Origin: Antedon mediterranea | Taxonomy: Eukaryota; Animalia; Echinodermata | DNA length: 64,000 nucleotides | Direction: 5' to 3' | Assembly: GCF_964355755.1 (NCBI RefSeq) | Contig: NC_092673.1 | Location: forward strand, 17,419,648 to 17,483,647 | Shown: piece after piece, positions 6,550 to 57,335 of the stretch | How the letters are laid out: the number at the start of each line of letters is the position of its first letter | Position numbering within the stretch: position 1 is the stretch's first letter | The notes under the pieces: model-generated | The model's database searches: none | What the model was told of the DNA's origin: nothing | Seen by the model: only the letters and a program-made list of their open reading frames with translations | Translations under genes and position numbers: made by a program

Positions 6550-7880
6550 TTTTATATTATTTTAACAGAATATTTAATTTTGACTTACAGAATTGTGCTT
6601 TATTTTATGACAATTACAGGATTAGCAATACTTTGTTTGGAAACGTTGGTTTATGGCAACCAGTTGCATCCATTGAAGTGTTTCTCAACTATTTTATTTT
6701 TACAGCAAAAATTGCAATACAATAAAATAACAGATTTTAATTCGAAATTCAGAGGCTTTAAAAGATAATCTTGGTGCACACACTACAAGGGTGATAACTA
6801 TCTTTTGCTCAAATTCTGCCTATGTTATCACTTACCTTTCAGGCCTTTCGTTTAATAGCACATGAATTGTTCAATAAACTTGAGTTAAAAGGTAATTTCA
6901 AACCTACTAAGGTCTGTTACAAAGGTCACAGAAGTTAGGCTGCTGAATATCTTTGAACAAAACATGTCTGACGTGAAAATAAAAAAAAGTATATTAGTCT
7001 GATAGTACAGTGATACGCCCGTATTCTTTAAACCAGACTTTAGTCGTAGTTCGAACTTCGACTTCAAAAAGTGCTAGTTCGAGCTACGGGCTCAAGCCCC
7101 CCTTGCCAGAGAGACTAGCTTTCCCACCAAATTTTTGTCGGGGAATATAATATACTGCACATTGTTCACGTACACTTCGTAGCTTCAGCACCTAGAAAAC
7201 CGCGACGTTCAATTGACCGTGAGTACGTCAGAGGGCTATTGTGCACTTTATGCATTCATTATCGCCAGCGATCTAACTACTAAACAAAAGAATGCACTTG
7301 TCTGGCCTTTGTACAAATCGTTCGCGTTACTTTGTGTACTGTGTATCGACATACGCTACAGCAAAAACAAGTTATGTTAATTATTCGTATGTTCACCAAT
7401 TTTTTAATTTACAATTAATCCTCTGTACCGTGGGGCACCTAAAATAAATATTTCATACATTACTAAACAAAAAACATGCTATTTTCGCTTAGCCAACAAC
7501 ATCTTATTATAGTTTAGTTATTAAGTTTTCAATGTCCTGTATGTCATGAACTTCTCACCATACTCAAAGTCCAGATGGTAAGCTTACATACACTTGCGAG
7601 GTATACTGATTAGGCCTTACGGTGAAGATGAAAACATTTTTTCTTGTTCCTCATTAAGCATAATAAGTGAACTCTCTTGATTCATATACATAAAAATAAA
7701 TTAATCACGTATTAAAAAGTTCCACGAAAATTTTCCTGACATTTTAAAGAAATCTTGATTTTAAAAGTATAAAAGAATATATTTTCGCAGTTGCCATTTT
7801 GTATCACATGACATCAGTTAAACCAATCATACGCGACGTTTAGGCAGCAGACGTCAAAATCAGCACGATGTAAACACGAA

Positions 7881-10746: not shown

Positions 10747-10869
10747 TTTATACGGTTTTGAATGCAACAAAATCATCATAAAAAGTAACTGTAATGTAAT
10801 AGGCCTACACTATAACCAATGTGAAACACTAACCATGGTTATGCAAACAGAAACTGTGAGCATGTGAAT

Positions 10870-12799: not shown

Positions 12800-13642
12800 G
12801 GAGTCATCTTCATTCAGTAACACCAGCATACAGGTCATCTACATGCAGTAACACCAGCATACAGATCATCTTCATTCAGTAACACCAGCATACAGGTCAT
12901 CTACATGCAGTAACACCAGCATACAGATCATCTTCATTCAGTAACACCAGCATACAGGTCATCTTCATTCAGTAACGCCAACATACAGGTCATCTTCATT
13001 CAGTAACACCAGCATACAGGTCATCTTCATTCATTAACACCAGCATACAGGTCATCTACATTCAGTAACACCAGCATACAGGTCATCTTCATTCAGTAAC
13101 ACCAGCATACAGGTCATCTTCATTCAGTAACACCAGCATACAGGTCATCTTCATTCATTAACACCGGCATACAGGTCATCTTCATTCAGTAACACCGGCA
13201 TACAGGTCATCTTCATTCAGTAACACCAGCATACAGATCATCTTCATTCAGTAATGCCAGCATACAGGTCATCTTCATTCAGTAATGCCAGCATACAGAT
13301 CATCTTCATTCAGTAACGCCAGCATACAGGTCATCTTCATTCATTAACACCGGCATACAGGTCATCTTCATTCAGTAACACCGGCATACAGGTCATCTTC
13401 ATTCAGTAACACCAGCATACAGATCATCTTCATTCAGTAAACACCAGCATACAGATCATCTTCATTCAGTAATGCCAGCATACAGGTTATCTTCATTCAG
13501 TAACACCAGCATACAGGTCATCTTCATTCAGTAACACCAGCATACAGATCATCTTCATTCAGTAACACCAGCATACAGGTCATCTTCATTCAGTAACACC
13601 AGCATACAGATCATCTTCATTCAGTAATGCCAGCATACAGGT
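12800..13642. repeat. Minisatellite, 31-bp unit, ~27 copies
   Basis: Unit caggtcatcttcattcagtaacaccagcata. Confidence 0.95.
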
Positions 13643-13798: not shown

Positions 13799-16700
13799 AT
13801 GGAAAGGTACGTTTGTTTTTTATTTCAAATCCAACAAAAATAACCAGCTCCAATATGTAAATGTTAAAAACAAATTAAAATGTTTGAATAGTTAGCAATA
13901 CTTTAAAACTTTCTTAAAAGATTATGAAATTATAAATATTACAAATAAAGGGCTCATTCTCATCAAATATAATGATGATATTGATTATTTCCATCAATCA
14001 TCATTTTCATAAAATAGTGTAATAAATCATTATTTCTTACATTTTAACAGGAACAAATTAGAAAAAGCTTTGTTGTACAGGGGTGATTTGCAAACAATTA
14101 AACAAATTTGTAAGACGCAACCAGATCTTGTGAAATCTATCAATGAGGTATAATATTATCAAAGAAGAAATTTAATTAAAGTTTAAAATTATAGAGATTG
14201 TAATTTTCTTTATTATTTATTATAACATTTTTTTATATAATGAATTACAATTATTTTTCAATATCACACTAATGATGTTGGTAAGACCTGCATGCACTGA
14301 TTAACCACATTAGGCTAAAAATAATAATATAAATACACACTGATGATGGGGATAACCTGCATGTACTGATTAACCACATTAGGCTAAAAATAATAATATA
14401 AATACACACTGATGATGGAGGTATAACCTGCATGTACTGATTAACCACATTAGGCTAAAAATAATAATATAAATACACACTGATGATGTTGGTATAACCT
14501 GCATGTACTGATTAACCACATTAGGCTATAAATAATAATATAAATACACACTGATGATAGGGGTATAACCTGCATGCACTGATTAACCACATTAGGCTAA
14601 AAATAATAATATAAATACACACTGATGATGGAGGTATAACCTGCATGTACTGATTAACCACTTTAGGCTAAAAATAATAATATAAATACACACTGATGAT
14701 GGGGGTATAACCTGCATGTACTGATTAACAACATTAGGCTAAAAATAATAATATAGATACACACTGATGATGGGGGTATAACCTGCATGTACTGATTAAC
14801 AACATTAGGCTAAAAATAATAATATAAACACACACTGATGATGGGGGTATAACCTGCATGTACTGATTAACAACATTAGGCTAAAAATAATAATATAAAT
14901 ACACACTGATGATGGAGGTATAACCTGCATATACTGATTAACCACATTAGGCTAAAAATAATAATATAAATACACACTGATGATGGAGGTATAACCTGCA
15001 TGCACTGATTAACAACATTAGGCTAAAAATAATAATATAAATACACACTGATGATGGGGGTATAACCTGCATGCACTGATTAACCACATTAGGCAAAAAT
15101 AATAATATAAATACACACTGATGGGTATGGCAAGCCTCAGCTGTCTGGAGTATTCAAAATATTATATTATTATATCAGAGGTCCCAAATTGGGAAAGTCC
15201 ATTCGCAGGAGATTTTGTCGTGAACCACATTCAATTCGTCGGGGCGTCGAAAGTCAACGCGCAGGGAATCGAAAATCAACACGCGTGTCGTTTACGTCTC
15301 TTAATTAATTAACTAAATATGTTACATATACAGTATATACAATATTTACACATAAGTTTGCTTAATTTTTACATAGGTTTATCCATCAGTATTTTTACAT
15401 TCTTATTTTTTTTATGGACACATCCTCAGTACAAAGAATTAAAAAAATATATACTGTATTTTAACTAAAATTCAGTATATAAAATAATTTAACTTAATTA
15501 CATAGGCACAGGCCTAGCCTAGGGCTTCTACTAGGCCCTAGCTAGCTACCATTTTAACCCCCCCCCCCCAAAAAAAAAATAATAATAAGAAATAACTATT
15601 CCGAATCCGTCTTATGCTACATTACGCGAGTTAACATATTATTTCAGATGAAAAACATTGAGTTTTATATTGTTTTATCCATACGTAATTACACTGGCAT
15701 TAAAGATATAACATTAAAATGTAGGCCGTTTATGAGCTATTTCGCCGATTTCTTATCGCTGGGAAATTCCCCACCATCGACATCGATCGAGGAGTAGGCC
15801 TAGGCTAGAATAGAGGCCTAGCGTGCATGCCGGAACGGGTGGATTATTGCTATATAAATAACAAGTTTGAACAAAAGAGCTTACAACAATCTTAGGTAAA
15901 TTTTTATTAAACGTAGGCCTACTTGCTTGGCGAATCCATATGCTCGTATTATCGGATCGTACAGTAAAACCAAATAAAACACCGCCTCAACAACCTCGTG
16001 CGATGTGCGATCTGTTGTTCTTTGCAGCGGATCAACATTGGTAGAGTCCATTAATTATGAGGGTGTTTAAAAATGTAATAACTATTAAAAACGTGTCTCA
16101 ATCACTGTGTAATCAAAGCGTTTATTTAGTTAAAACTTGGATCCTCCCAAAATTGATAATCGCGTATTCCGGTGACCACGTGATTGATTCACGGTTGGTT
16201 GCACGCTCTTTTTTTTCTACGTCCGGCGTGTAGTAACCGTGCATGTTTATATTATTGTTACGGTTTAACAAAGGCAGTGCATACAAATAAAAATACAATA
16301 ATAGACCACAGAGACTGCATGAATAGACATTGTTTCAACATCCTGCCTCACTTTTGTCTAGTTATTTATTGATTATTGTTGACCTGGGCTGAGCCTGGGT
16401 GTAACCGTAAATCAATTTGGCCAAAAATATGGGGAAATTTGAAAATGCGGTAAAAAAAATCAAAATGCGGTAGAAAACGTTGAGATAGCGGTAGCGCGGT
16501 AGATGGGTTCTAAAAGCGGTAGACTACCGCGAGTAGCGGTAGACTTGGGACCCCTGTTTTCACGCTACATCACAAGAGAGGACTCAATCAGATATAAAGC
16601 AAGCAGCAATTTTAGGACTATAGTTTATAGGTCCCAGCTGCTGGACCCAAAAAACATCTGGGAAAAGTGTCTATGAGGGTTCACGGTTGAACGATTTTGG

Positions 16701-19700
16701 ATTCTTGCCCTTTGATTGGTTGACTTCAATGCAAATGGTTTAACCTAAATTTGTTATCGTATCTAGTTTAACTTAATTATGATATTAGTTTCATTGGGTG
16801 TTAAAAATCAGTACCAAAAGTATGTACCAACTTTCTCTACCATTGAGTAAATATTCTAGAAGTTGCACTTAATTTACTGAAATTTCTCATTACGCAAATT
16901 TATATATAAATTCATTAAACTGCTTATTGGCCTCATATTTTTAATATCTGAACATTTGTTTGTACAATTTTATGAAAGTATTTTTTCTCATTACGCAAAT
17001 TTATATATTAATTAAGTAATAGGCTAACAAATCTCTAGATCTGATCCATGGTAAGATAATCTATTAAACCCAATTTCACATAATGTCTGTTGTCGGTATT
17101 ATACACCAGCAAATTTGCAAAAGAAGGTAATGTACAGGGATTTGCTAGTGTAATAGGCTAACATTATATAGATATGCTGTGGTAAACCATTCTATTTTGT
17201 TCTACTCATTTATTAATAATGATAATTATGATTATTTATCACAATATTTAGTAGCAATTGTTGTTGTTTGTATTGAAAAAAAAAACAAACAATTTTACAT
17301 AATGTCTGTTGTCAGTATTTATAAACTTTATTATGATTCCTTTCCAGAATGGTGACACTCCATTACATTCATATCTGGGGAGCGGATATAGATCTACCTT
17401 AGAAATAGTGACTTGTCTCATTCAGCATGGGACACCAGTAGCATTGCAAAATAAGGTAATGTACAGGGATTTGCTAGTGTAATAGGCTAACATTATATAG
17501 ATATGCTGTGGTAAACCATTCTATTTTGTTCTACTCATTTATTAATAATGATAATTATGATTATTTACCACAATATTTAGCAGCAATTGTTGTTGTTTGT
17601 ATTGACAAAAAACAAACAATTTCACATAATGTCTGTTGTCAGTATTTATAAACTTTATTATGATTCCTTTCCAGGATGGTGACACTCCATTACATTCATA
17701 TCTGTGGAGTAGTATGTATCCACCTACCTTAGAAATAGTGACGTGTCTCATTCAGCATGGGGCACCAGCAACATTGCAAAATAAGGTAATGTACAGGGAT
17801 TTGCTAGTGTAATAGGCTAACATTATATAGATATGCTGTGGTAAACCATTCTATTTTGTTCTACTCATTTATTAATAATGATAATTATGATTATTTACCA
17901 CAATATTTAGCAGCAATTGTTGTTGTTTGTATTGAAAAAAAAAACAAACAATTTCACATAATGTCTGTTGTCAGTATTTATAAACTTCATTGTGATTCCT
18001 TTCCAGTCTGGTGACACTCCATTACATTCATATCTGAGGAGTGGATGTACTGCACCTACCTTAGAAATAGTGACGTGTCTCATTCAGCATGGGGCACCAG
18101 TAGCATTGCAAAATGAGGTAATGTACAGGGATTTGCTAGTGTAGTAGGCTAACATTCTATAGCAGGCCTCGAATTTTACCGCGGCCAGTGCCGTCGGTGC
18201 CCTCCCAGTTGGCCTCAATGCCCTCGAAAATTAATAGCACCCACGGCCACTACTGGCCTGCCCTTTTTTTGCGTTGGCCGTGAGTGCCCTTCCCGAGTTT
18301 TACCACAATAAAAACCACTAAAGTAGATAGAAAATAATGTCAAGAATATCGGACGAGGCGCAAAACTATCGCCTGTCTTCGTTGCAAGGGGATTTCCCTA
18401 AACGCATTTAGAGAAAACATCGAACATATTTATATAACCAAAACAATATCGTCCCGGCCGCCGTGCGTGGTAAATAATGGTATAGATAGTACATTAAAAT
18501 ACAGGGGTGTACACTTTTAATAATAAAGCTAAAAACGTTCCTCGATCGGAGGTCACTGAAAGTATTAAAGTCGCACCACCCCCGCCTCAATAATCGAGCT
18601 AGCCGCCTTCGTTGAAAAAAAAATTACACGCACTCCTTGTCCTAGCCAGCCTATCCTCCCGCCGCCGATCCGATCAACAAACACACGCGATTCAATACAT
18701 TGGGAAAACAATTCCATTTGACGCACACGCACCCTCTGATAAGAAATTTCACACGACGTCGTCGTACGTGTGAGAGTACGAAGGATCGGTCGTTGGAAAA
18801 ACAATTCCTTTTGACGTACACGCACCCGCTGATATGAAAATACCATGTGCGTTCCTGCATGGTGTAGTCCATTCCATTATACGTGTAAAATTAGGGGTGT
18901 CAACTTTTAGTACTAAAGTTAAACCGGTACCTCAACCCGAAGATCGTTGGAAGTATATTGTATTTATATTTTATCGCACCCACCTCAATAATCCAGCCGA
19001 CAGATCATCGAAAAATCTTGTTTAACGACGTCGTACACTAAATTAACAAACGCGTTTTTACCGAACTCAAGGAAATGGTATAGTCCACAATACACGTGCA
19101 GAAGGCTAAACGAGAGAGAGGGGTTGGCGTCCGTCCGTCCGTGTTTTGAATTCTTATGAATATGGATTATACTAACAAAAAAGCTTCAGAAATCGAAACT
19201 CGGAAAATAACAATAATTTATATTCTACAACATAATGTCATTGGCTTGATTTTTACCGTGGTTAACACTCTGTGTATGAATAGTTGTAGTTAAGGCCTAC
19301 AAACAAATTGTTTTTGTAACCTGTGTTCTCCGTCCGCTACGCCTTTAGTGCTGCTAAGTGCTTGCTGTTGTTAGGGTCTTTACCCGTTGGGCCTGGCTTC
19401 ACATGCCTTTTTTTGATCGCATTGTTTGAAACTAAACGAAACAACTGTGAACGCTAAACATCGTACCTTAATAATTATTATTTATATGGATCGTAAATAC
19501 ACGTAATATTTATATGAAATACAAAAAGATGTAGACAGTCCTCTCCTACTACTACTACGCAATCTGATGAATAGGGGAAATACCCCCAAAAATGTTTGCG
19601 GGTAGAATTTTTTTTTTTGAAAAAAATTCCACCCGGGCGCTCAACCGGAAACAAGCTATTTTTAAATTTTGGCCTATTTATTAAAATATTTTTTAATTTT

Positions 19701-22700
19701 GGCCTTGGTGCCCCTTCGATTTAAAACAAATGGCCTTGGTGCCCTCCCATTTGGCCTTGGTGCCCCTCAAATCAATGAAAACCGGAGGCCAAATGGCCTT
19801 GCCCCTAAAATCCCCAAATTCGAGGCCTGCTATAGATATGCTGTGGTAAACCATTCTATTTTGTTCTACTCATTTATTAATAATGATAATTATGATTATT
19901 TACCACAATATTTAGCAGCAATTGTTGTTGTTTGTATTGACAAAAAACAAACAATTTCACATAATGTCTGTTGTCAGTATTTATAAACTTTATTGTGATT
20001 CCTTTCCAGAATGGTAACACTCCATTACATTCATATCTGGAGAGAAAATATCCACATACCTTAGCAATAGTGACTTGTCTCATTCAGCATGGGGCACCAG
20101 CAACATTGCAAAATAAGGTAATGTACAGGGATTTGCTAGTGTAATAGGCTAACATTCTATAGATATGATGTGGTAAACCATTCTATTTTGTTCTACTCAT
20201 TTATTAATAATGATAATTATGATTATTTACCACAATATTTAGTAGCAATTGTTGTTGTTTGTATTGACAAAAAACAAACAATTTCACATAATGTCTGTTG
20301 TCAGTATTTATAAACTTCATTATGATTCCTTTCCAGTATGGTGAAACTCTATTACATATATATCTGTGGGCTGGATATACTGCACCTACCTTAGAAATAG
20401 TGACGTGTCTCATTCAGCATGGGACACCATTAGCATTGCAAAATGAGGTAATGTACAGGGATTTGCTAGTGTAATAGGCAACATTCTATAGATATGCTGT
20501 GGTAAACCATTCTATTTTGTTCTACTCATTTATTAATAATGATAATTATGATTATTTACCACAATATTTAGTAGCAATTGTTGTTGTTTGTATTGTAAAA
20601 AAACAAACAATTTCACATAATGTCTGTTGTCAGTATTTATAAACTTCATTATGATTCCTTTCCAGTCTGGTGACACTCTATTACATTTATATCTGGGGAG
20701 TGGATATAGACCTACCTTAGAAATAGTGACTTGTCTCATTCAGCATGGGACACCATTAGCATTGCAAAATAAGGTATTGTACAGGGATTTGCTAGTGTAA
20801 TAGGCTAACATTGTATAGATATGCCGTGGTAAACCATTCTATTTTGTTCTACTCATTTATTAATAATGATAATTATGATTATTTACCACAATATTTAGCA
20901 GCAATTGTTGTTGTTTGTATTGACAAAAAAACAAACAATTTCACATAATGTCTGTTGTCAGTATTTATAAACTTCATTATGATTCCTTTCCAGGATGGTG
21001 ACACTCCATTACATTCATATCTGAGTAGTGTATATGCACCTACCTTAGAAATAGTGACGTGTCTCATTCAGCATGAGGCACCATTAGCATTGCAAAATAA
21101 GGTAATGTACAGGGATTTGCTAGTGTAATAGGCTAACATTGTATAGATATGATGTGGTAAACCATTCTATTTTGTTCTACTCATTTATTAATAATGATAA
21201 TTATGATTATTTACCACAATATTTAGCAGCAATTGTTGTTGTTTGTATTGACAAAAAACAAACAATTTTACATAATGTCTGTTGTCAGTATTTATAAACT
21301 CCATTTTGATTCCTTTCCAGAATGGTGACACTCTATTACATTCATATCTGAGGAGTGGATACCCTACCTTAGAAATAGTGACGTGTCTCATTCAGCATGG
21401 GACACCAGTAGCATTGCAAAGTAAGGTAATGTACAGGGATTTGCTAGTGTAATAGGCTAACATTCTATTCTATTTTGTTCTGGTTTACCACATTATTTAG
21501 CAGTAATTTTTACTGTATTGTCTCATATTATGGCATATCTGCAGCATTGCAAAATAGGGTAATGTAGGCTTACAAAGAATTGTCAGGACAATTTCACATT
21601 TTATTGTTATCAGTATTTATAAACTTCAACTTCAGTATCAATTAGCCTCCATATTAATCAATAGTATTACTACCTCAAAGAGTAGTATTATTTAATCAGA
21701 CTTACAGATATAGAATTCTCAAGTGTTTGATTTTTTTCACATTTTTCTCTTTTTACACATAGCACATTCTAACAAGTTTGTTTTGATTTAGATATTCATT
21801 TATAAGTCAACTATAATTGTAATGTGTTGTTGTTGTTTTAATATTTCATTTGTATCTGGATAGTATCCAAATATTATTTTCTTTGAAAGTTTATAGTAAA
21901 ACTATTTGTTGTTTTATATTATGGCTCAAACATTTTAACACATCTACCTACTGTTCCAAAGTAAACTTTTATTCAATTTATCTCTCTCTCTCTCTCTCTC
22001 CTCCATCTTTCAATGTTGAAGGCGGTAGACTATAAACAGCAGCACTCAAGTTTTGGTTTGGATACAGGAGTTATAGGTGGCGCACTGTACAAGTTGATGT
22101 CATTTATTAGCAAATAGTAATTTCTATTCACGTCCTAATTTACAACCAATGTTAAAAAATAGTAAATCTATGTGTTATCACATGATGCTCTTTCATCCAA
22201 TCTCTAGATGGTAAATGTTTGAGCCATGACATAATACTGTATGTATGTGATGCATAATTAAAGTGTGTTATATTGTATATCAATAATTTCTCAAAACTAC
22301 TAATAACTAAACCCATTTTTTTAATAGGATGGAAATACACCTGTCTCTCTTTTAGAAAGTAACAGGTGGATAAAGGAGCATAGTAAAACTGAAATTTTAA
22401 ACTTCTTAGAAGGTAAGTGAAGTTTTAATTATTGAAATTTTAGGATCAACTAGTTTCATTGCAAACGATAACAATTTGACTTCTTGTTCCAAGTGAAGAA
22501 GAATGTCCAGATAAAGAAAATTAACATTTATGATATATCATTCACAGGTTTATTATAGATTAAATAATTCAGTGGGATAGTAGTATACATGGAAGTTGTG
22601 ATATGTTGCAAGATGTAAATTATTTTGCTATTAATACGATAAAAATAACACAAAAACGCAAACTTTAAAATTCCTTTGAAATAAAAATATTAAATAAATC

Positions 22701-25700
22701 ATTTTTCAAATCAAATCAATCTCTTTATTCAATACATCAAAACAGTACACATAACAAAAATAAAGAGATTTTAATGATGATGATGATGATTTTAAGATGA
22801 AAGGGACCTTCAATAAACCTCAAGGGGCTTTTGATAGGAGGCTTTACTTTAAACTAGTTACAATAATCGGATGGGGGATATGCATTGTTAAGGAATATTT
22901 GAACTTTATTAATTGCACATAAATGTAAAATGTAGATTTTTTTTTTTTAATGTAATCTATTTTATATATAATGTACAATTGGTATTCGCATTCAAGGCAA
23001 ACAATTTACGATAGGAGAAGATAAATATTGAATATAAAATCTAATTTTCTTGTTAAATCCCAGTTTTTGTTTCCACAATGGATGAATTTCCTTCACACAT
23101 TTTAAATAATAATTCGTCTTCTTCGAGGAGCTGAATCACCGGATTTTCAGCGTACCAGGTTACTACCGTAAATGATGGCGCTTAATTAAAAGTTCTTAGT
23201 AGATATAGCTCTATAAATATTAGCCTTAAAAGTTATCCCCTTAATAGATATAGCTCTATTACCTATTAAGCACCTACTAATAAGTAGATTTTAGGTAGAA
23301 TTTAGATAGTTCCTAATAGGTTTTACCTCATTAGCATAATTCAAAACCCCCACTAATAGTGTTAGATAGTTTTTTCACTATTTTCAATCTGTGAGTAACA
23401 CAGTTGTATGCATCTATCTATTGTCTACTATAATAGCAATACCAAGGGCTACCAGCAACCTATTAATAGACATAAACAAACTGATAATAGCCAGTAACTG
23501 TTAATAAACTATCTATTTTATACAATAGATAGATATGGACTACCAGATAGCTATTAGAAATCTATGAGTATCATATCTATCTATCTACTGTCTACTTATT
23601 ATAGCTATACAAGACTACCAATGACCTATCAATAGACTATAAAGAAACTGATAATAGCCAGTTAGATATTAATCAACTATCTATTTTATAGCTGGGAAGT
23701 AGTCGTTCCATCGTTGACTCATTCAGTTAAAATCATTAGTAGTCGAGATAAAAAGGTCTACTAAAAAACTACTGAAAATAGAGCTATTTCTACTTAAGTC
23801 TACTTAAATTCTACTAATTTTTTTACTATGGGTAAAACCAATAGACAAATTCAAACTCCTCCTTCCCACATTCGCATTCGAGGAAAACAATTTACGATAG
23901 GAGGAGATAAATATTGAATATAAAAATAAAACATTTTCTTGTTAATTCCATTTTTTGTTTCCACAATGAATGAATTTTCTTCACACAATTTTAAGCCAGG
24001 TTAAGAATACTATTTTTCTGTATGTAAAATTAAGCATCATACATGTGTTATTCTAAACACCAAGTCCCACAAAGCATAACCAAGATCTACCAAGTGTATA
24101 AAGAACAGTGCCTTTATTGTAGGCCTTTAAAAATGCAATTCCAGGTCTATATTGGCAAAATTCAGCCCAAACCATGGTGGGCTCAAGTTCAAGTTATCTT
24201 TATTGTGTTTTCACACAGGAATAAAAACAAAATTGGTTACTGGTCATAAAACAGAATATAAATAAAAACATTTAAAAAGTTCAAGGCATATTAAAAACTT
24301 ACGATAGGTGGTCAATAATTCCTACTGCCAAATTCTGAATCATACCAGTTATTCATTTCAGGATTACTTTATTTTCACTTTACACAGTGAAACCATCCTA
24401 ATCAACCGTATGGTGCTAGAAATGATTTAGATTCAGGATCTCTGTCAAAAAATGTTGCATAACGCCTCTATGTTTGGATGAGTTTGAGTTCACACAATTT
24501 TTAGGACATAATTAATAACTGTAGTTGTTAACTGTATACATTTTAGTTTAAAAAAATACATTATTATTATAGTATATCCAGAATGAATGAGGTTTACCAT
24601 TTTCATGTATAGTCGATTGCTTGTACACAGTCACCCACAAGCTTTTATATAACCTTATACCATTGAAAAATTTTAAAGATACCATATGACAATTCAAGAG
24701 TTTTGCCAAGCTGTGACTTTTAATATAGTGTTTTTTTATGAAAATATGTAATATGTAATATTTTTGTTTGGGTATTTTTTTAGATTTACCAAGTACTGTT
24801 GATGAGCAATTTCAAACACAATTTCAGAAACCGACAAGTGACGAACAGAAAACAAAACTTCTTAAGCCAGAGAGTGGTGAGTTTAAGAATCATAAGAGCT
24901 GCTGTATGTTGTATGATTGTATCTATATATAATTTAACACAATTGTGATTAAAATGGGATTTCAGTAAGGAGAGAATTAGACGCTAATGTTATTTAAAAA
25001 AAGCATTATTTCTGAGCGGTACTGTAAAAAGGCGAAAAGTGTGCAACTAATAACAAATGGAGAGATTTTATTTATCATAAATAAAACAAACAGTTGATTG
25101 TTTCCATCCAAAATACTGTAATAATGGAATGGAGCTAGTTTGCAGATTTATGTGGCATGCTTGATTGATGATTTTTTTTTTTTTTACTTTATTTACTCCA
25201 GATGTTTTAAAAATCTATTAAAATCTTGATTCAATTTTCAGATATTCCATGTGATATTGCTGCTCGTGAATTAGAGTATCAGGAAGCGTACAAGGAAGCT
25301 TTGAAAGGAGGATCTGTCGCAGTCAATCTTGGAATGCTTAAGGTGATTGGACAGGGAGGAGTTGGTAAAACATGCCTCATAAATGCATGTCTTGGAAAGA
25401 TGTAAGTAGTTGGACAGTAAAATTGACATTACAAAATACATGTAGGTACTGCCTAATTATAACAATAATAGATAATAGAATTAAATTTTAACATTGTTTT
25501 GTAATTTTAAATGAAAGATCATTTTAATTGTTGACTAAATAACTGATTTAAAATGTGTATTTTATAAATAAAGACTATTGAAATAGTAACTACTGGTATC
25601 TATAATTAAAAAGAGAAAATTGAATTTTACGGCACTAAAAATGAATGACATTCATTTTTGGTTTCAAATTATTATATTATTATTATTATATTTATCTCAG

Positions 25701-28700
25701 ATTTGAGGAAGAACATAAAGTTACAGATGGAATAGCAGTGATAAGAACAGCAAGCAAAACATGGAAAGAGGCTGAAGCTGATAGTGGTAAATTTGAATAC
25801 AAATTAGCATATTACTCTTCCCATCATCATAGTCAATGTAACAATATTTATCTTTGATCTCATTATCATAGACACAAACAGGCCCACAATGAAACTGAGA
25901 TGTAGAATGGAATTCAATAAATGCATATAACTGTAGTATGATGTCAACAGTCATATTTTCACATACATACAGCAATTACTCCATGATCCTTTAACACGCA
26001 ACCTATTGTTTGTTGATGTACTGTAATTTTACATTAATTAATCCATCAGTTAAAGTATTGTCACCTATCAATGTATCTGCTGTAATAATATGTGCAAATG
26101 TCTTTTTTCTCTACAGGTAATCCTTTAAAACAGTATACAAAAATGGTCAATGACAAATTGAGAGAAAAGAAAACTGTAAACGTTTGTCAATAATAGCGTA
26201 ATAAAAACATAATATAAATAAAGTAGCACCTACAGGACTATTTCAAACCAGTCACTTAGGCTTTCTTTCTAAATGAATCAATGAGGCATTATGAGCAGCT
26301 ATTTCATTTTTTTTTCTTTCAAAATAATTTGGGTTTTTTTTTAGAGTAAATAATATTAGTTTTCTCTTATATTAAATTGTAAACAATACTGTATTTAACT
26401 TGAATAAACATTTATTTCTTTTTATATCCATTGTTTTTACGTAATGTGTAGATTGACATGAAACCACCTACAGATGATAATGATTACAAAAATTATGGTA
26501 TGTAAATTTCCATTAAATTCTAATTATTTTTACATTTTTGTAGTAAAAGCACTAATAAATAAGTTGCAATTATCAGTTTGCAATTTCTGTCATATTAAAG
26601 ATCTATTGTCCCCAAAAACATGAAAAATAAAGATTATTAAAATCAGACTTTGAATAGATTATTTTGTAGTTAATCACTTCTGTAGAAAAAAAAGGAAACA
26701 ATTAAGGTTTTCACTTATAAAATAACAAAATAAATGGTTAAATTCAACCAAATACCCATTGACTGGCAGTCAATTTGACTTTTTTTTTCAATCCAATTTT
26801 TTTTATAGTGGATAACTATTAGGTGACATTAAAATGGCATATTAAAAAAAAAATTGTAACCATTATTTTTTCATGAGGACAATACATCTTTAAATTCATA
26901 GTTATATAAAGTTAGATTTTCCAATTTAATGTAACTAAAGAAGTATAAAATTATGTTATCAGATTCATAACTTAGAGGCAACCTATCTGTGTAACAATTA
27001 TGGTGACCGTAATTTGGAGAAAACAAAGCGTCCTACTCCTAGACATAGTCTACAGACGCTGTACACGCAGGCTTGGTGGGCATGTTGTCTAGTTAGGAAA
27101 GTTAAAAAAACACCTAATTAAAAACTTAGAAGAGGCTTACAAAGATGCTTATTTTTTTTATGAATCTAGAAGAATCAAAGTGAATTCACAGTCCTGGTGA
27201 CCGTCCCGGGGCGAAAGCTCATTATGATGATAATGAAGACAACTATACTCATAGCAACTTTTTAACTGACTGAATACTATGTTGACTTAAAATTTTAAAA
27301 TAATGATGCTTGTTACGCCGTTTGTGGAATGACCAAAACACTTGTTTTCGCTACAGGTACTGATACAGCTACTCAAGCTATTCCATTTGATACAGATCAA
27401 CAATTAGATAAGGATGTAATCAAGGAAGTTAAGGAAAATAAGGAGGAGACTTTGGAAGAAACATTCAACATATGGGACCATGGGGGACAATTAATCTACC
27501 ATGGTCTACATCGGGTAAGTAGGTTTCTGTATAGACTAACATAATTGTATGGCCAAGGTATAGTTTGATTTTTTCTTTTTTTTTTCGCAAACATCTTTCC
27601 ATGGTACTGCATAGTAATATATATAACAATTTAATAGTAGATTCTTGTCACTTGATTGGAGGATTGTGGGTCACATGATATTCAATAGACATATACTATT
27701 AAACATTAAAGTCAGATTACATATTCTTATGTTACACAGTGAGCAACCGAAACATGGGATGCAAGAATAGACTGCGTGTTAAAAAATCAATCTGTATTGT
27801 CACGCCATCTATAATTGTTTGCCTTCTGCCTTCTTGAATAGTTTAGGCCTTGGCCTAGCCTCTTGTTGATGTTTATGTATAATACATCTACTTTTAACAA
27901 GAGGCTAGGCCATTGAAAAGGCAGAACTCTAATTTTAGAGAGGGAGTAAAACAATTGGCAACATACAGCACACACTACTGGTTAATGAAACGTGATCAGT
28001 CAACAACAGCCTCTTGAAGAGTGTGTGGTTAAATGTTCACTGTGTAAAATATGCGGAAAACAAAATTGCAGTACTGGCACACATACCTGTATAATGACAT
28101 TGCACTCTTGATGACATCATTAGGGGAGTAATATAACATTTATTTATATCATGTGACCCATAATCCTCCAATCAAATAAAAAGAATCTACTTTTGGGTGT
28201 TATAATATACAAATAATGAATGTTTATGAGTGCAATGTATTGGAAAATAATTTCATGTGATAACACTAGAACATTTCATCTTTCACTAATGATTTTTTTG
28301 TTTCATTGCATGAATATAAAATATTCATTATTCGTATATTATCCATGACTAATGTTAATTTTAAACATTTTCAGTAACTTTTCGCCACATTAATTATCAA
28401 AGAATTTGTATATGAAAGTCTTTATTATATATCAAGGTCCACATACAATTTAAAATAATATTTGTTATGTTGTCAGAAGGCCTTAAAGAATATTAATCAG
28501 TCAATATCTGAATATTTTTGCAGATGTTCATGACACTACAAGCACTATACATTGTTGTATTTGATCTCAGTAAACCATTGGATGATCTTGCTACTTTCAT
28601 TGATTCTACTGAAGTAAGTGTTTCTAGATGCAATAAGGCATTGAGATTGAACAAATCTTCTAATTTATAAGAACATGCATTTTATGCATTAAAAACAGTT

Positions 28701-31700
28701 CCAAATAAGATGTAGTAATGAATGCTTTCAAAAACTAACCATTTCAAGTTTCACTGTGATTAAGTGTTTTCATAATTTTTTTTATACAGGAAACATCTAG
28801 ACATCATTGGACCAATCTCCAGTTCATATTATCTTACATCCTGTCAGTTTATTCTCATAGTCGTATTGTGGAAGAAGATGAGGAGAATGAAGTTGACAAA
28901 CCAACTATCTTTATTGTGGGTACACACAAGGGTAAGCTTGGTAAGACTGAAAAACAGCAAAATGATGAGGTTAATACTTCTTTTGTTTCTATATTTTATA
29001 AATAGCCACAACCAAAGATACATTGCAGTTGTAAATATTTTTAAATATGTATTACTTAAAATAAATTACAAAATTGACACATTCTTATTATGATATAGGT
29101 GTAAACTGTTATTAAAATTATTTACAAACAGGCAGAAAAGGCGTTTAAAATTATTCAAGATGTGCTTAAAACAAAACCATATGGAAATCATGTCTACCAC
29201 AAATATTTTGCCATTGAAAACAGCCAACCAACAACAGATAAGAGCTTTAGTGATCTCAAACAAGTTATTGATGAACTTATGAAAGCTTTAGAAAAGCCTT
29301 TTCCTTTAAAGTGGATGCGTTTTCGATGTGATCTACATGATCTAAGAGGAAAAAAACAGCCCTCTTTTTCTTTGTGTCCTTTAGAAGAGGTAAATGTTAT
29401 TTGTTTTGTTTTTGTTCTTTTTTTCAGAAAAGAACATTTTGGGAAATATTAAGTCGCAATATATCTATCAAGTATCTAAAAAAAAAAAATTAATGTTTCC
29501 AAATATAAGTACCCTTTAATTAAAAAATGTCTATAGATAATTAGATTACTATATCCAAAACCATATTTTCATCTCAGATATTTGCTGCCATTGTTTTATT
29601 TATAAATTGTGTGTTTGAAAATAATAAGGTAATTAGCCATTGAAATTCAATATTTAAAACTATTTTTTCATGTATTACCCACATGTTACAAAAACTGAAT
29701 ATGATTTCATATTTTTTTTTTTATTCTGAATAATACTAATTTAATATTATTTCTTTTAGATCAAAATTCTGAAAAGTAAGAATGGTATTGTTGAAAAAGA
29801 AAAATACAAATCAGTCCTGCTTAACTTCTTGTACGATCTTGGTGAAATTGTTTACATGCCTGACAACAAATTACTAAGGGATAAAGTCGTGCTAGATCCG
29901 TTGAGGCTGGTTGAAATTGTCACCAAATTTGTAACTGTGGTTCCCCCAAAATATCCCGTAAGTAGACTCATGTAATGTCTTGCATTGTAAAAACGTGTTG
30001 CCGTAGTATAATTACTCCTGTTCTGTGTAATTTATTATTCCTTAGCAAAGAGTTTGCCTTTAGTAATATTTGATAGAGATGCTTAACATTTTCTATAGAT
30101 AAAAAAAAGTCATTTGTAATTAATTATTTCACTTTTAATATTCTGCTTTCAATCTATTACAATTGAAGCACTATAAAAGTGAATAGCAAACTAACTTGGA
30201 GTAATTTCACAGTTTAACCCTTTCACTGCGTGTATTATCGGGTATAAACATGTCGTTGAACTCCATATAACCATCATTACCGAGTACACTATATTTTTGA
30301 TAAACTTAAATATATTTGCAATGTTTTAAAACTATTTTCCTGCACTACATGCAACCTCTATATTTTTTAATATCGTCGTATCGTACCATTTTCTTACTCC
30401 AAACGGTAGACCAACCTTTTACCCACCTCAAAAATATTTACAAAATTATCTCATTTAGTAGGTTTTTGCAATTTATTAAAAATCACCTGTCTCTCAATGT
30501 TATGCACAGTGAAAGGGTTAAACCACAATACTGTATTATACCAACACATGGTTCATCTATATTCTAAATGCTTACTGTATCTATTGCCGTCATCCTCACA
30601 ACTGTTATAAACACAAAATACGATGCATGGTTGATAGTTGGTGTTTTTTAGTCCGCTAAATTTAGAAGATCTTTTGATAAGCTTGACAAAGGCATACTGG
30701 AAGAAGACTTGTTGCGAAAATTATGGAAAGATAGTAAAGTTGATGACGGAAAGAATTTTGAGTTCCTTGTAGCACTTATGATTCAATTAGGTTTCATTTG
30801 TGAGAGAAAGACAACAAACAGCCAGGATGTCGCAAGTACATCTACAGTAGGTTTTGTTTCTTTAATCTTTCATTTTATACATGTAAGATGTGGGATAAAA
30901 AGTATTATTTTAATAGTTTGGATTTTTAATGTTCAAAGTTTGAATAAACTTTCTAATGAAAATGTCTACATGACAGAGTATCTTTAGTTTGCTTAAAATA
31001 ATTTAAATGGCATTGTTACAAATTAACAATTTCAGAAATCAGTTGGAAAACGATCCTTTTTTGTGCCACTGCGACTTGCTATCAAGACAAGTCAAGTAAG
31101 ACAAGTACCTGATGGTTCACGATCTATCAGCAGGCCAATCTATTACGACTTTGAGGGATATCTGCCAGACGTGTTGTTTCCGTATTTAATTATTGAATTC
31201 CTTAACAAATTTCAAAAGGAAGGAGTTGACCCAATACTTGCATGTAGTTATGCAGAACTTTACCTCAACGAATATCATCATGTGATTTTGTCTCTTGACA
31301 AATTTATTACTAAGAATGATGAGCGAAAGTTCTTGTTAAAGGTAATATATAATCTCAAATGTTCAATAAATATCACTAAATTATGAAAGTTAAATATTGT
31401 TGCTTAGTCTTTCCCTGATCTGTCATGTCAGAATCCACTTTAAATGCATATAAAACTAAAACTAAATTCTGATAACAAAACATTACATCTATTTTTACTT
31501 TCTAGATGGCTATTAAAAGAACAGATTCTTTTGATGAAACGAGTAAAGAGGAACCTTCAGCTGAAGCATGTAAATTGGTATGTTATGTTACCAGTTATGT
31601 TATCTATCTATTTGGTAGTTTATGAAAATACACGTAGAAAGTTTTCTCCTCAATTTTTTGTCAGGTTTGCTTGATGTCTGAAAATGTCTGCATATTTACA

Positions 31701-34700
31701 ATGTATACTGATTTTACAAATCAATTACAAATTATTTTCCAACATTGCAATGTATAGTTTTATAATGAATGTTTATGAGATGAATGGTAAGAATATTTCA
31801 TGAGTTGAAAAATTGTCTGCACTATTTTTAACGAAGCAGAGAGCCGAGTTGAAAATAGAGCAGTCAATGAACAACATATTCTCTCCATTCAACGAAAACA
31901 AAACATTCATTATTTATTTTATAACACACCTATTTTTTATTATATTTATTTATATTTGTTGATATGATATGTCTTAAATTCAATTAATTATGTTACCAGT
32001 TATATTATATATCTGTTTGGACCTAGTTTATGAAAATACACATAGAACACTTGATGAGAAATTTACACATGTTTCTTTAAACTATGCTATAAAGTTCTCA
32101 TCATATTTCTTTGTGAGCTACTGCACCATTGATGCTTTCATATTTGCTGGTGTGTGTCTTAAATTGTTATCAATCGACATTAAATTTATATCTTTAGGTT
32201 TTGTCAACAGTTGAGAAGTCATTTGAACAATCTAAAGATGGCGGTAGAAGTGGGATTCCATTCAAGAGATGCATTCCTTGTCAGTGTAGTGATCAATTAG
32301 ACAAGAAGCATTTTCAAATTCTTAAAGATTTCCAATGCAGGAAGTTAACGTGCACAGAAACTGGCAAGGCTATCACGATGGATGTCACATGTTATAAGCG
32401 GCTGTTTGGAGGTAAGAGTAATTAAATTTATTTATTTTTATTAAGTACATTTTCATTAATACACTACTTTCTTCATGAATGACTCTCACTCATCCCTACG
32501 GGTGCAGGTCAAGTCGGCCCTAAACCGTCTCGGCCAAAGTCAAGTCGGCCCCACGTTAAGTCGGCCCCAAGTCAACTCGGCCTCACGTCAACTCGGCCAA
32601 AAACTAATCGGTCAACTCGGCCACAATAAAGTATGGAACGCAAAAAGTGCTTAATATTATTATGATTCTTATACTATCCACGCTTTAAAAAAAATGAAGA
32701 AATAAAAAAAATATAATATAATTAAATAATATCATATAAAAAAATGAACTCATTGCCGATATGAATATAAGTACCCGCGTGTTACAAAAACACGTGCAGG
32801 TACCGCCCCGGTACCGCATTTTAGTAAATCGAAGACGGAGGCCTACGTTCCACCATTTGACCATAGAAAAAATGATCGTACATCGTTTTTGTCCATGATT
32901 TGCGTTAAAAAAAAAGGGGAATCCCCCGGTCAGTGAAAACACGTAGGTATCGAAAAAGCTGCCAAAGGCGCAGGGAGGCGCAGCTACGAATTGTTTTCAA
33001 TTGTGTAATTTGAAATTTTATTAAACGCAAATAAAGGAAAGTTGGTGAAATCATTACTATTTTTTTTGCTAAATATATTATTGTCTAAATATTAATATTC
33101 ATTAAAAGTCAGAATTATTTATAGTTAAAAAATTGTGAAGAAATATTATTTTATCAATCCCCTTCATTTGCACTTTTTGCGTTCCATACTTTAACGGGGC
33201 CGAGTTGACCGATTATTTTTTGGCTGAGTTGACGTGAGGCCGAGTTGACTTGAGGCCGAGTTGACTTGAGGCCGAGTTGACTTGAGGCCGAGTTGACTTG
33301 AGGCCGAGTTGACTTGAGGCCGAGTTGACTTGGGGCCGACTTGACTTGGGGCCGACTTGACTTGGGGCCGACTTGACTTTGGCCGAGACGGTTTAGGGCC
33401 GACTTGGATCGAAATCATCCCTACAGCACAGGAAACTGAAAAACAAAAGGCTATTTCTGTTCTATAAACAATTTGTGACCTATTTGTGCAAAAATTGACA
33501 TGTTTAAATAATTATAGAATAGAGAAAGAGGATACTTTACCGTATTTGAAAATAGACATATTTGATAATATACTTCCAGTAGTAGTACAACATAATCATT
33601 GTTGATAATATATACATTGTTACAACATAATCATTGCTGTGATATCTTCATTCCTCTCAGTAGTAGTACTAGCAGAATCATTATTGATAATCTATACTTT
33701 GTTACAACATGCTGCTATTAGCTGTGATATCTTCATTCCTCTTACCAGTAGTAGTACTATCTGAATCATTATTGATAATCTATACATTGTTACAACATGC
33801 TGCTATTAGCTGTGATATCTTCATTCTTCTTACCAGTAGTAGTACTATCAGAATCATTATTGATAATCTATACATTGTTACAACATGCTGCTATTAGCTG
33901 TGATATCTTCATTCCTCTTACCAGTAGTAGTACTATCAGAACCATTATTGATAATCTATACATTGTTACAACATGCTGCTATTAGCTGTGATATCTTCAT
34001 TCCTCTTACCAGTAGTAGTACTATCAGAATCATTATTGATAATCTATACATTGTTACAACATGCTGCTATTAGCTATGATATCTTCATTCCTCTTACCAG
34101 TAGTAGTACTATCAGAATCATTATTGATAATCTATACATTGTTACAACATGCTGCTATTAGCTGTGATATATTGTTTCGGTATCTTTTATTCATCAAGTA
34201 TATATGCACAAATTTGATACTGCAACAAAAAATGTGACATGACAACAAAAAATTAGAATTGTTCGTAATTCAATAAAGTTAATCTTATTTTGAATTTACA
34301 TATCCCAACAAACATAATACAAAACATAAAGATAGTCAAGTATCAACTTCCTGGGAAAATTGAGATCTATGTTACTATGTTGGATGTATTATGTTCGTAA
34401 CAGTTGTACTGCTGGGGCTTCCTTATCTCATTCTCATTCTTTCTTGGAGATCCAAGAAACATTTATTATATATGGCCTTTGGCCCAAATAATATACAATG
34501 TAATACAATATTAAATAAATATCAGTTGAGTGCGTTTAAAAATTCTGTTCTACGTTTAAATGAAAAAAATAAATATTTTCCAAGTTTAACAATAATATCA
34601 GTATTTGTAGTAGACATAAGATAAATATATTTTAATTTAGTTGGGTTGTTTGTATAAAAGGAAAACATATATTTAGTTCTAATATCTGAATAAAATGGAC

Positions 34701-40700: not shown

Positions 40701-43700
40701 ACTAATAATATTGTGTCTAGAGCTTCTAGACGTTTATTTTCCTTGTGCATTTTGAAGAAAGCAGGAATCTTAATTAATGATCTGTTGACTGTTTATATGG
40801 CGTATATAAGACCTATTTTAGAATATGCTGCCCCTGTTTGGCATGGCGCTATCACTAAGGACATGTCCAAGTCTATTGAAAAGGTACAAAAGAGAGCATT
40901 GCGTATCATGCTAGGTAACAACTATTTGTGCTATGATCATGCATTGTCTGTTACTGGTTTACCTACTCTTGTAGAGAGAAGAAACAAACTTGTGTTGTCT
41001 TTCGGGGAAGGCTTATTAAAATCCGAGCTGTTTAGAGAAATACTTCCCCCTCTTCATAAGCCAGCTCGGTCTCTCAGAGTCAACCGCTTTCTAGAAGTAC
41101 CTCATTGTAAAACCAGCAGACTTAGGTCGTCTCCAGTTCCCACCATGGTGGATATAATTAATAGGCACCACTAGCTCTTTTTTAGATATGTAATAAGTGA
41201 ATGTTTTAAGGTTTTTTATTCATGTATGTTTTTAATTGTATGGTACGATATCTAATTTTATTAAGATGTTTCTATTTTTATAGCAATTTTAACTAATTTT
41301 TAGTCATTTGTAATACATTTCATTTCAGTCCTTGACTGTCGTTTTGTAATATATTTTTATATACCGAATAAATAAAAAAAATAAATACATTTTTTCGTAT
41401 ACAAGAAATTAAATAATGCAGGGAGTTAAAAATAAAATTATATTAGCTAATTTCCAAATTTCATTCCAACTCAATTCATACATATCTTTTCCATTTTTCT
41501 TAATTTTTTGATATACATAATTGTTTTCATGATCAGTTCTCAATTAAAATGTTAGACATCAGTACAAATACATTTTGTTATATATCAGAATATCATAGAC
41601 ATTGGTTGTGGTTGAAAATTTTAGATAGGCCGTGAAAACGTAGTAGCCTACAACAACTCTTACTGTAGGCCTAACTAGTTAGTCATAGCCTTTCTAATTT
41701 TATTGCAATAATGTCTTGCCTAGAGCATAGTGCATGAGATATTCTACCCAGGCCTTCACCTATTCTTTACTACTCTGAACTTGTGTGTGCATAGCTAGAT
41801 CAAATGAAACACAATTATGGAAAAGTCCATTAATTATGGTGATTATTTCGTTTTAATTACACTTGATACTGTGGTTTATTAAATCACATCCCTACGTCAA
41901 CAGTCACATATTTCTGTAATCATATAGGCAATAGTTTAAATACATCAAGAAATTGGTACGACTTAATTTGGACATGACTATCTTCCAACTCCACTCCCTG
42001 AGCCTCAAGTTTATCCATCCCGTAATTGGCGAGTTGCTTGCTGTTAGATTCGTATGAAATAAGACCAAACAAAAAAATCATTTATTTTACTTTTTGTTCA
42101 CTCTCACAAATGTGTTCCTTTAAATATTATTTTGTTATCAGTCGAAAAGGATATTCCATTTGCTATTGCTTTTTATAAGAAAGCGTACAATGAAGCCTCA
42201 AAGTGATTTAGTATATATTTAGTATACGTCGTATACAAACGTATATAGTATATGAATGTATATGAATGTATTTTTTCGACCACTAACATGCATAGCGCCA
42301 TTGATTTTGTACCTCTGTCTTTGAATTGAAGCTTTATAAATTTTTGATATACTGTAATAATAATAATAATAACATAGGTTGGTTTTTTGCAAAGGGTTAC
42401 CTTGGACAACATACTGTACCAGTATATATCTGTCTATATATAAAGATGTGTCATCACTATCTTGTTTATATTGAAATGGATTCTATGAATAGTATTGGTA
42501 CAGTATTATAATTTATTGTATATCTTAAATCCTGTTGAACCAAACTTTTAGAACATAATATTGTAATGTTAAATTTAACTGAGGCTAAATAACTATAAAA
42601 ACAGTACTATGGTCAGATTTAGACTTCCAAGGAGTGAGTGGCTTATATTGATTAATTATCTCCTGTACAGTACCATGTTGGCTGTAAAGTCTTGTGGTGT
42701 AAGTGGTCAATTTCACTTTTTCAGACGTGCAATGTGATACAGAGACTACTGCATTTTTCAGTATTCTTAAATAAAGTCTAGCCTAAAATCTGATTAGCAA
42801 ACACTAGACTTTGTTGTTTTCTTAATCTAGCCATTATCATCAGTCGGATTTTTAAAATTAACAATTCAGTCAGACAGTTATCATTTATTAAAATAATATA
42901 TTATATCAAATTTTAAAAAAATGGCCACTGAGCATTACTTTTGTAGCCTACTGTTTGTATGGTTATGTTCTGTTTTTTTTAAAGGTGAAATAAATTATAT
43001 GATTTCTTATCAACTATGTCCTATTATTTTATTTACAGGCAGGACAGATTTCCAAAGTTTTAAAGTTGGTCTCAGTAGATGCTTTGATGATATTATGATG
43101 GAAATATACCATTGGCTAAAATTCCTACTATTTGGTCACTTGGGTTTTATTACATATCAAGATTTCAATTACTTGCTCATTGCACTTAAAGACAAAGGTT
43201 TTATCTCACCAACCAATGTTTATTTGCTGCTAGAGATTGCACAGCTATCAGAAATCAAAGCTGCTGAAGTACTTGTAATACTGTATATGAAAGACAATGT
43301 TCAGGACAGGCCTGATACAAGTTTGTCATCTTACAGAAAGCAACTGTTTAAGGCCCTGAGACTGAGAGAAGAAGACCAAAATACATTACGTGATGTTATT
43401 GATTTGTACGAGTTGACAAGTGATGACTTCACCAATATCTGGGATGCAGTTCTTTATCTGGAGATTAAGAAAGAATTAGCAGATGATTCCGTCAAAATAC
43501 AAAAGTTTGCAAATTGTCTAAGCACAAGAGCAAGAAACACACTACTTGGTATGTTATAGAACTATCCTGAAGTTAATTGTTGATGTTATGTTTATTTTAA
43601 CAAAAAAAGTTATGTAATGGTAATTTAATTTCAATAAAATAATAACACTAATTTAATTTAAAGTTCAGAATATATTAACTGATTATTTGATTATTTATAG

Positions 43701-57067: not shown

Positions 57068-57335
57068 GCTGCAGAGAGTGGTGTTGTTCCAATCAATTGC
57101 AAAAAAAAAGACAAAAAATAATGCTTTATTTAAAAACAGTGTTACACTTGAATCATGCAAAGGTGTCTTTCGCTGAGGTCATACAATGTCATAGATAAAT
57201 AAACCAAGTATTGTACAGACAAATTTATTTCATCTGTTACATTACTGTTTATTTTAATAGATCTGGCATTAGACTACAACCACCAAAAGCCAATCTATGT
57301 AGAACTGGGAAGTCCTTTATTGTAAATAGCATTCA

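Follow-up and report, generated by a model that had tools for sequence, protein, structure and literature searches.

An array of one-repeat ankyrin exons with signs of diversifying selection in a predicted ROCO gene of the crinoid Antedon mediterranea

A 64,000-nucleotide stretch of the genome of the crinoid Antedon mediterranea (contig NC_092673.1, positions 17,419,648 to 17,483,647; hereafter the window) contains an array of eight short exons, each encoding one ankyrin repeat, which differ from one another far more than the introns that separate them. We place this array within a predicted ROCO gene, where the ankyrin repeats (ANK) are followed by a ROC GTPase domain, a COR domain, a likely tandem death-effector domain (DED), and a likely membrane anchor. 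From the alignment of the exons there is good evidence that the repeats are under diversifying selection. We think it probable, given the array together with the predicted ROC-COR, likely DED and predicted anchor, that the product is an intracellular immune sensor whose binding face has been diversified by selection and by an exchange of repeats that we infer; our best reading of the array is thus an NLR-like, germline-diversified intracellular sensor. The original prediction, a variable ankyrin receptor in an animal, was made from the letters of the window, and it had missed both the host gene (ANK-ROC-COR-likely DED) and the decayed units that flank the array.

The exons are built very regularly. 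All eight are in phase 0, have AG/GT borders, are free of stops, and measure 105-111 nt, so that every length change is a multiple of 3, as had been claimed; one repeat per exon with a uniform intron phase thus holds in 8/8 cases. The Pfam Ank model matches all three of the array exons tested, two of them above the curated cut-off. Tandem Repeats Finder reports a unit of 327-330 bp in two blocks, 17115-18162 and 19830-21468. Introns of 218-221 nt had been described throughout, and six of the seven between array exons fit that description; intron 3 measures 1,892 nt because a transposon has inserted in it. The inserted element is bordered by a duplicated 6-mer and interrupts an otherwise normal 219-nt intron, and to judge from its sequence it is likely a non-autonomous DNA transposon; a partial copy, 85% identical, lies at 63615-64000. 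Two decayed units flank the array, and no reversed repeat exons were found in introns within the window. The variable residues and loop peptides listed at the outset (GSGYRS, WSSMYPP, RSGCTAP, ERKYPH, WAGYTAP, GSGYRP, SSVYAP, RSGYP) are all present in the exons. The repeats are on average 79% identical to one another over 33 positions, below the bar of 85% over 100 amino acids used for fungal NLRs of high internal conservation, and at the DNA level the units resemble one another far more closely.

To quantify the variation, we compared the eight exons with the eight introns that precede them, setting the transposon insertion aside. The mean pairwise difference is 0.110 for exons versus 0.025 for introns, and the variable gap-free columns number 29/105 versus 13/218. 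Over the 31 unambiguously aligned codons, a minimum of 18 amino-acid-changing substitutions and 1 silent one is required (binomial p 0.03), and the corresponding proportions of changed sites are pN 0.094 and pS 0.023 (bootstrap P(pN<=pS) 0.028). Adding three loop codons, for which the alignment is less sure, gives 29.5 versus 2.5 over 34 codons (p 0.008). The three or so silent variable sites counted by eye in the original prediction agree well with these values (1 in the framework codons, about 2.5 with the loop). Using the introns as a neutral reference, the amino-acid-changing excess has p 1.5e-4. Purpose-written codon models over 33 codons point in the same direction: the ratio of amino-acid-changing to silent rates (dN/dS, omega) is 4.6 under M0 (p 0.003), and M2a is favored over M1a (p 2e-5). 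Omega is about 14 at six positions fixed beforehand from the ANK-N5C library versus about 3 elsewhere, and a star tree gives similar values. The inference of diversifying selection, for which a codon-site dN/dS analysis and an exon-intron comparison had been proposed as checks, is sustained by both, with one codon test at p 0.078.

What about the uniformity of the introns? Homogenized introns had been proposed as the hallmark of the array. The introns are indeed uniform, but this is not a property of introns as such: silent exon sites (pS 0.023) are not different from the introns (0.025), so that intron-specific homogenization is ruled out, and what we observe are whole units that are homogenized and in which amino-acid change is accelerated. 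Moreover, the four intronic minisatellites of the window differ by 0.018-0.06, a range that brackets the array introns, and therefore no special homogenizing machinery is needed. Structured RNA was considered as a cause of the uniformity and is ruled out: the array introns have no Rfam match at E 0.1, their fold is not unusually stable (z 0.28), and inverted pairs, apart from the transposon ends, are short and chance-like, with no long docking sequences between units.

The variation is concentrated where an ankyrin repeat would bind. We set the register of the repeats by alignment to solved DARPins, which are also their best sequence matches among solved structures. As described for the ANK-N5C library, the randomized positions are 2, 3, 5, 10, 13, and 33, in the beta-turn and helix 1, on one surface (PMC4308713). 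In the crinoid array, 19/33 positions are invariant; the variable ones comprise 5/6 of the library positions versus 9/27 of the others, and the entropy is 1.18 bits at the six versus 0.30 elsewhere (exact permutation p 0.002). Position 14, which belongs to the classical DARPin set, is variable here as well. Helix 1 is followed in each repeat by a loop of variable length, with 2-4 extra residues. In a model of the paralogue P0032 (residues 1-369, pLDDT 90.8, TM 0.73 to the ankyrin-B repeats), this stretch is a coil that connects one helix to the next within an ordinary ankyrin solenoid. By the register, the variable residues would be co-facial. Paralogues P0032 and P0033 likewise vary at the classical DARPin positions (p 0.02 and 0.05).

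The units appear to be mosaics. The four-gamete test is failed by 8/10 intron-intron site pairs and by 44/91 pairs overall; finding all four gametes at 2.5% divergence indicates recombination or conversion among units. There is no correlation between intron distances and exon distances (rho 0.10). To the last array unit we aligned, at 80% likeness, public contigs from four runs, which come from three studies and carry two organism codes. Contigs of all four runs have insertions in the variable loop, those of two runs have head-to-tail unit junctions, and the deletion junction of the 5′ decayed unit is also present in one contig of run X1; the variant contigs may be paralogues or alleles. No modeled splice junction occurs among the 15 contig joints listed (573 further), a result that is uninformative about expression. 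As a side observation, the summed contig depth at the last unit is above that of most neighboring bins; it yields no copy number, and we do not use it as evidence. Also, at window position 25356, in the P-loop, every contig of the four runs has A versus the window's G, and A gives the glutamate found in the paralogues; since this and several similar sites differ in all runs, no run looks like the window's own haplotype.

The host gene can be followed along a predicted path from 13799 to 57067 with 30 exons, 1,331 amino acids, 29/29 GT-AG introns, and no internal stop. With this predicted splicing, the order is an N-cap, the eight repeats, a C-cap, a linker, ROC, COR, a helical pair, and two hydrophobic helices. 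Predicted residues 467-1270 (804 amino acids) are identical to XP_071947397.1, an Antedon mediterranea RefSeq model (P0001), which bears out the animal origin of the array and assigns it to a crinoid. For the parts outside that model we rely on paralogues: P0036 joins the array's repeat type to the array gene's ROC type, and P0007, P0034, P0035, and P0039 open with sequence closely similar to the N-terminal exons of the window. The Pfam Roc match is weak on single exons, and it is above cut-off both on P0001 (E 2e-8) and on P0036 (E 3e-14). The G1 and G3 motifs are intact, and NACHT and NB-ARC give only P-loop-level matches far under cut-off; the domain is Roc. COR follows ROC directly (COR-A on P0001, E 1.1e-10, 42.1 bits versus a cut-off of 35.3). 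For the likely DED exon, the best VIA-align match of an AlphaFold model is the caspase-8 tandem DED (Z 8.3, rmsd 4.6, 123 aligned), and 11/13 of the top rows are DED proteins; in P0020, which is 58% identical, Pfam DED has E 0.003, under cut-off. The two hydrophobic helices of the last exon are likely a membrane anchor. The product of this exon matches the C-terminus of paralogue P0021, and we infer the join to it, because the RefSeq model ends differently.

This gene belongs to a large family. A search with one COR-region exon retrieves 31 proteins, 27 in Antedon (many of them fragments) and 4 in Anneissia, and 23/27 of the Antedon proteins lie on one 36-Mb contig. Their tails differ (DEDs, death domains, hydrophobic helices), and one member has an N-terminal kinase. 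A profile of the repeat finds 10 Antedon proteins among 90 matches and no Anneissia protein, which is weak evidence of absence; the Anneissia ROCO relatives carry ordinary divergent ankyrins. The array-type repeat occurs on two different ROC clades and also on the ROC-less Antedon mediterranea protein P0033 (13 repeats of two interleaved subtypes, with loops of up to 19 extra residues), where the ankyrin cassette has come to sit on another scaffold. We compared 43 repeats, leaving aside one truncated P0034 repeat, three P0038 repeats, and the two of P0007, near-duplicates of those of P0039. The best match is within the same gene for 33/43, and the repeats group by gene or subfamily. At the same time, the window repeats are 78-80% alike to those of P0034, P0035, and P0036 and 79% alike to each other, and this equal likeness between genes and within the array suggests a shared repeat pool or very recent duplication. 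A search with P0034 for proteins of similar length gave no new relatives (2 matches). As a separate observation, the Antedon mediterranea RefSeq model P0007 combines two ankyrin repeats with two tandem ROC-COR units, each of a different clade, and a hydrophobic tail of two helices; either a fusion or a merging of predictions may explain it. Finally, 19/90 of the profile matches are ENA proteins that combine ankyrins with Roc, and in several of them the repeats are highly similar. In P0050, P0054, and P0058 many similar repeats vary at the same face positions, in what looks like a parallel expansion in another organism; similar-repeat ANK-ROCOs are thus not unique to this crinoid.

We propose the following mechanism. 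One repeat per phase-0 exon in a unit of about 330 bp means that the reading frame survives any gain, loss, or exchange of units. The units would then become mosaic through unequal crossing-over and gene conversion, in keeping with the pattern observed, and these processes would keep introns and silent sites about 97.5% alike. Amino-acid changes, which by the statistics given run about 4 times faster than silent ones, are fastest at the beta-turn and helix-1 positions. The solenoid may bind a changing foreign ligand in the cytosol, with ROC-COR acting as a nucleotide switch, and the DEDs may recruit caspase-8- or FADD-like partners for death or inflammatory signaling at the membrane. We take the diversification to be germline, across alleles and paralogues, with pathogens as its presumed driving force.

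Several points weigh against this sensor. The IQ-TREE positive-selection test gives p 0.078 on 31 codons (not significant) and p 0.011 on 33; there are just 1-3 silent sites, and pS is poorly bounded (95% interval 0-0.073). Moreover, recombination inflates tree-based selection tests, the M2a result (p 2e-5) included. The claim that binding-face codons are the diversified ones holds as an enrichment (p 0.002) and fails as an exclusive statement: positions 7, 15, 28, 30, and 31 lie outside the classical face, and they too vary and are picked out by the site model, so that the variation fits the binding face well, not exclusively; at position 33, on the face, all the repeats agree. In RefSeq, the model P0001 starts past the P-loop exon, lacks the array, and has a different final exon, and no protein with these eight repeats is among the 90 ankyrin-profile matches. 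In the ROC domain, the G4 region (28790-28969) has a glycine where small GTPases carry the guanine-reading aspartate. That aspartate is absent from all checked Antedon members of this ROC clade and kept in the Anneissia relatives and in a second Antedon ROC clade; the nucleotide specificity of this ROC may be altered. Finally, Pfam is silent on the DED exon, Foldseek finds nothing at E 0.001 (best E 0.66), and the VIA-align Z-scores are middling; on the model, a tandem DED is likely, not certain.

The same protein under the same selection could have a partner that is the animal's own, in allorecognition, in the recognition of gametes, or, as for PRDM9, in conflict with selfish elements. Sequence data would look the same for a self partner and for a pathogen. 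As far as the published accounts describe them, fungal NLRs with hypervariable repeats serve allorecognition (PMC4986451), and PRDM9 reaches a repeat-to-repeat dN/dS of 2.7 with no immune role (PMC5120217). We nevertheless judge a self partner unlikely, since a big clustered family with swapped tails (DED, death, kinase, hydrophobic) is closer to resistance-gene repertoires than to a single specificity locus, and with no signal peptide evident the repeats are predicted to be cytosolic.

Could the array instead be a recent minisatellite that happens to hold exons, relaxed or no longer spliced, with the amino-acid excess a small-number noise? The similar uniformity of the intronic minisatellites nearby (0.018-0.06), the absence of the array from the RefSeq model, the transposon and decayed units within the array, and the codon test at p 0.078 would all be compatible with it. 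Neutral drift, however, predicts equal change in exons and introns, and we observe amino-acid-changing sites about 4 times more variable (p 1.5e-4). Eight of eight exons retain their frame, their splice sites, and the invariant core (19/33 positions), and the enrichment at face positions (p 0.002) is seen again in paralogues. A decaying minisatellite is in our opinion quite improbable.

We give the same low weight to diversification within the individual animal, whether through somatic recombination or through combinatorial skipping of exons, that would produce an anticipatory receptor repertoire. With all exons phase 0-0, any subset would remain in frame, and for the LRR exons of brown-algal ROCOs alternative splicing (PMC11378527) and somatic recombination (PMC3341825) have been described and proposed, respectively. 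Against it stand the absence of an Rfam match, the ordinary intron fold (z 0.28), and the absence of long inverted docking sequences between units; the introns have no reversed or orphan exons, unlike those of Ectocarpus, and germline turnover accounts for all the observations. An assembly artifact, a collapsed or chimeric repeat, is hardly credible: near-identical tandem units do assemble poorly, and the public contigs cover the last unit only, none spanning the array, but errors would not favor in-frame amino-acid changes in exons while sparing introns, and paralogues share the array design.

A germline-diversified sensor of this kind would bring the use of ROCO proteins as variable immune receptors, known with brown-algal leucine-rich repeats (LRRs), into an animal and into the ankyrin class of repeats. 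The array also leads to a large uncharacterized family of crinoid ROCOs, which the annotation splits and leaves without names. The near-identical introns are a built-in neutral yardstick, against which a single gene suffices to measure how selection acts on a binding surface. Should the DED tail signal, the product would be an NLR-like sensor that uses the GTPase of LRRK2 and DAPK1, a result relevant to the purpose that ROC-COR switches serve. Engineered ankyrin binders could borrow from nature the variable loop that links helix 1 to helix 2. One could go further and imagine a natural DARPin library in a basal deuterostome: shared ankyrin cassettes with a loop like a complementarity-determining region, exchanged across the cluster, attached to varied switches and effectors, and combined further within each animal, by skipping of exons or somatic recombination, into an anticipatory, cytosolic, death-inducing receptor repertoire. 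We find this bolder version rather unlikely.

Table 1. Predicted features of the ankyrin array and of its host gene, in window positions.
Feature	Position	Strand	Description
Ankyrin array	17348..21425	+	eight phase-0 exons, one repeat of 35-37 aa each, near-identical introns
Array exons 1-4	17348-17455, 17675-17785, 18007-18117, 20010-20117	+	acceptor/donor parsing
Array exons 5-8	20337-20447, 20666-20773, 20994-21101, 21321-21425	+	acceptor/donor parsing
Element inserted in intron 3	18163..19829	.	1,667 bp, 14-bp terminal inverted repeats; strand unassigned
5′ decayed partial unit	17078..17347	+	donor at 17127, then a complete 221-nt unit intron; from sequence
3′ decayed partial unit	21426..21640	+	from sequence
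Start codon exon (13799-13806) and N-terminal capping-repeat exon (14051-14147)	13799..14147	+	in frame with the array
C-terminal capping-repeat exon (22328-22412) and linker exon (24784-24876)	22328..24876	+	in frame; order identical in P0036
ROC GTPase exons	25242..28969	+	P-loop 25242-25401, G3 27357-27514, G4 region 28790-28969
COR domain and C-terminal extension exons	29132..32411	+	Pfam COR-A E 1.4e-6 on exon 29760-29957
Likely tandem death-effector domain exon	43039..43548	+	AlphaFold model pLDDT 74
Three short linker exons (43701-43763, 46217-46241, 52736-52767)	43701..52767	+	in frame, identical to P0001
Predicted last exon	56883..57067	+	two hydrophobic helices, basic tail, stop; hydropathy peaks 2.46 and 2.16

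Elsewhere in the window there are minisatellites at 4038-5019 (89 bp), 12803-13642 (31 bp), 14260-15123 (71 bp), and 33576-34170 (88 bp), the last two within introns of the ROCO gene. The ROCO introns also hold, by eye, reverse-transcriptase-like open reading frames (ORFs) of the non-LTR retrotransposon type at 48373-52071 (minus strand; open over 1,232 amino acids), 34727-36424 (minus), and 40410-41174 (plus). Directly upstream of the ROCO start, 7880-10750 (plus) is a separate multi-exon gene or a transposase-like fragment, and THAP-like and transposase-like ORF pieces, again by eye, occupy 106-2030 (minus) at the window start. A duplication of about 1 kb (46317-47304 and 57332-58538, 76-80% identical) follows a late exon in each copy, and an inverted repeat pair of 381 bp (93%) lies at 61057-62232.

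How does the array compare with known systems? DAPK1 has an ankyrin-ROC-COR-death layout and is a conserved kinase with ordinary repeats; the crinoid protein, by comparison, has no kinase. We found no report of a one-ankyrin-per-exon ROCO in an animal, or of this crinoid family, in a literature search that had most subscription journals and all supplements outside its scope. Among other animals, ROCO-TIR proteins are noted in Aplysia in the source we consulted (PMC9334734).

PRDM9 is described as a coding minisatellite of animals in which the contact residues show a repeat-to-repeat dN/dS well above 1 (Persi et al., PMC5120217). The crinoid array resembles it as an animal array with repeat-to-repeat selection, and differs in that PRDM9 is DNA-binding, sits at a single locus, and has no switch or death domain. 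The PRDM9 array, besides, is intronless. The DARPin and ANK-N5C libraries (PMC4308713) share with the crinoid repeats a constant framework and variable beta-turn and helix-1 positions, 5/6 of the library positions varying here; unlike them, the crinoid array is natural and has 2-4 extra residues between the helices (up to 19 in P0033), a loop that standard libraries lack.

Bacterial AP-GTPase counter-invader proteins are reported to pair fast-evolving repeats with variable effectors (Kaur et al., PMC8195603). These ROCO proteins have the same repeat-NTPase-effector layout, with rapidly evolving repeats joined to ROC-COR and to a C-terminal effector that varies; those described are bacterial and LRR-based. 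In fungal NLRs, near-identical ANK, TPR, or WD40 repeats are reported to be under positive selection on their concave face (Podospora; Dyrka et al., PMC4986451). By that account, the crinoid gene shares with them near-identical ankyrins, concerted evolution, selection on the face of inner helix and beta-hairpin, and an NTPase switch with an effector. Unlike them, it has a ROC-COR switch rather than NACHT or NB-ARC, and its repeats are N-terminal, with one exon for each; the fungal NLRs are proven to be polymorphic in repeat number, whereas the crinoid array is known from one assembled sequence and short contigs.

The comparison with Ectocarpus, made from the start, turns out to be closer than anticipated because the host gene is itself a ROCO. 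The Ectocarpus ROCOs are described as having one LRR per exon, exon shuffling, positive selection, clustering, and, in some, C-terminal transmembrane segments (Zambounis et al., PMC3341825), and a further account has brown-algal ROCOs alternatively spliced and lists ANK-ROCO proteins in oomycetes and a green alga (Teng et al., PMC11378527). The crinoid gene is alike in its N-terminal repeats on ROC-COR, one repeat per exon, diversifying selection, and clustered, expanded family; some Ectocarpus members likewise carry one or two C-terminal transmembrane segments. It is unlike them in having ankyrins rather than LRRs, in belonging to an animal, and in its likely tandem DED effector; its introns are near-identical, so that the whole unit is a minisatellite, and no reversed non-coding exons are seen. 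The crinoid gene thus works like an Ectocarpus-type ROCO and is not a member of that LRR family. Judged by its predicted structure, it is an ankyrin-based, animal version of the exon-modular ROCO receptor, one that combines the one-repeat-per-exon design of brown-algal ROCOs with the hypervariable ankyrins of fungal NLRs.

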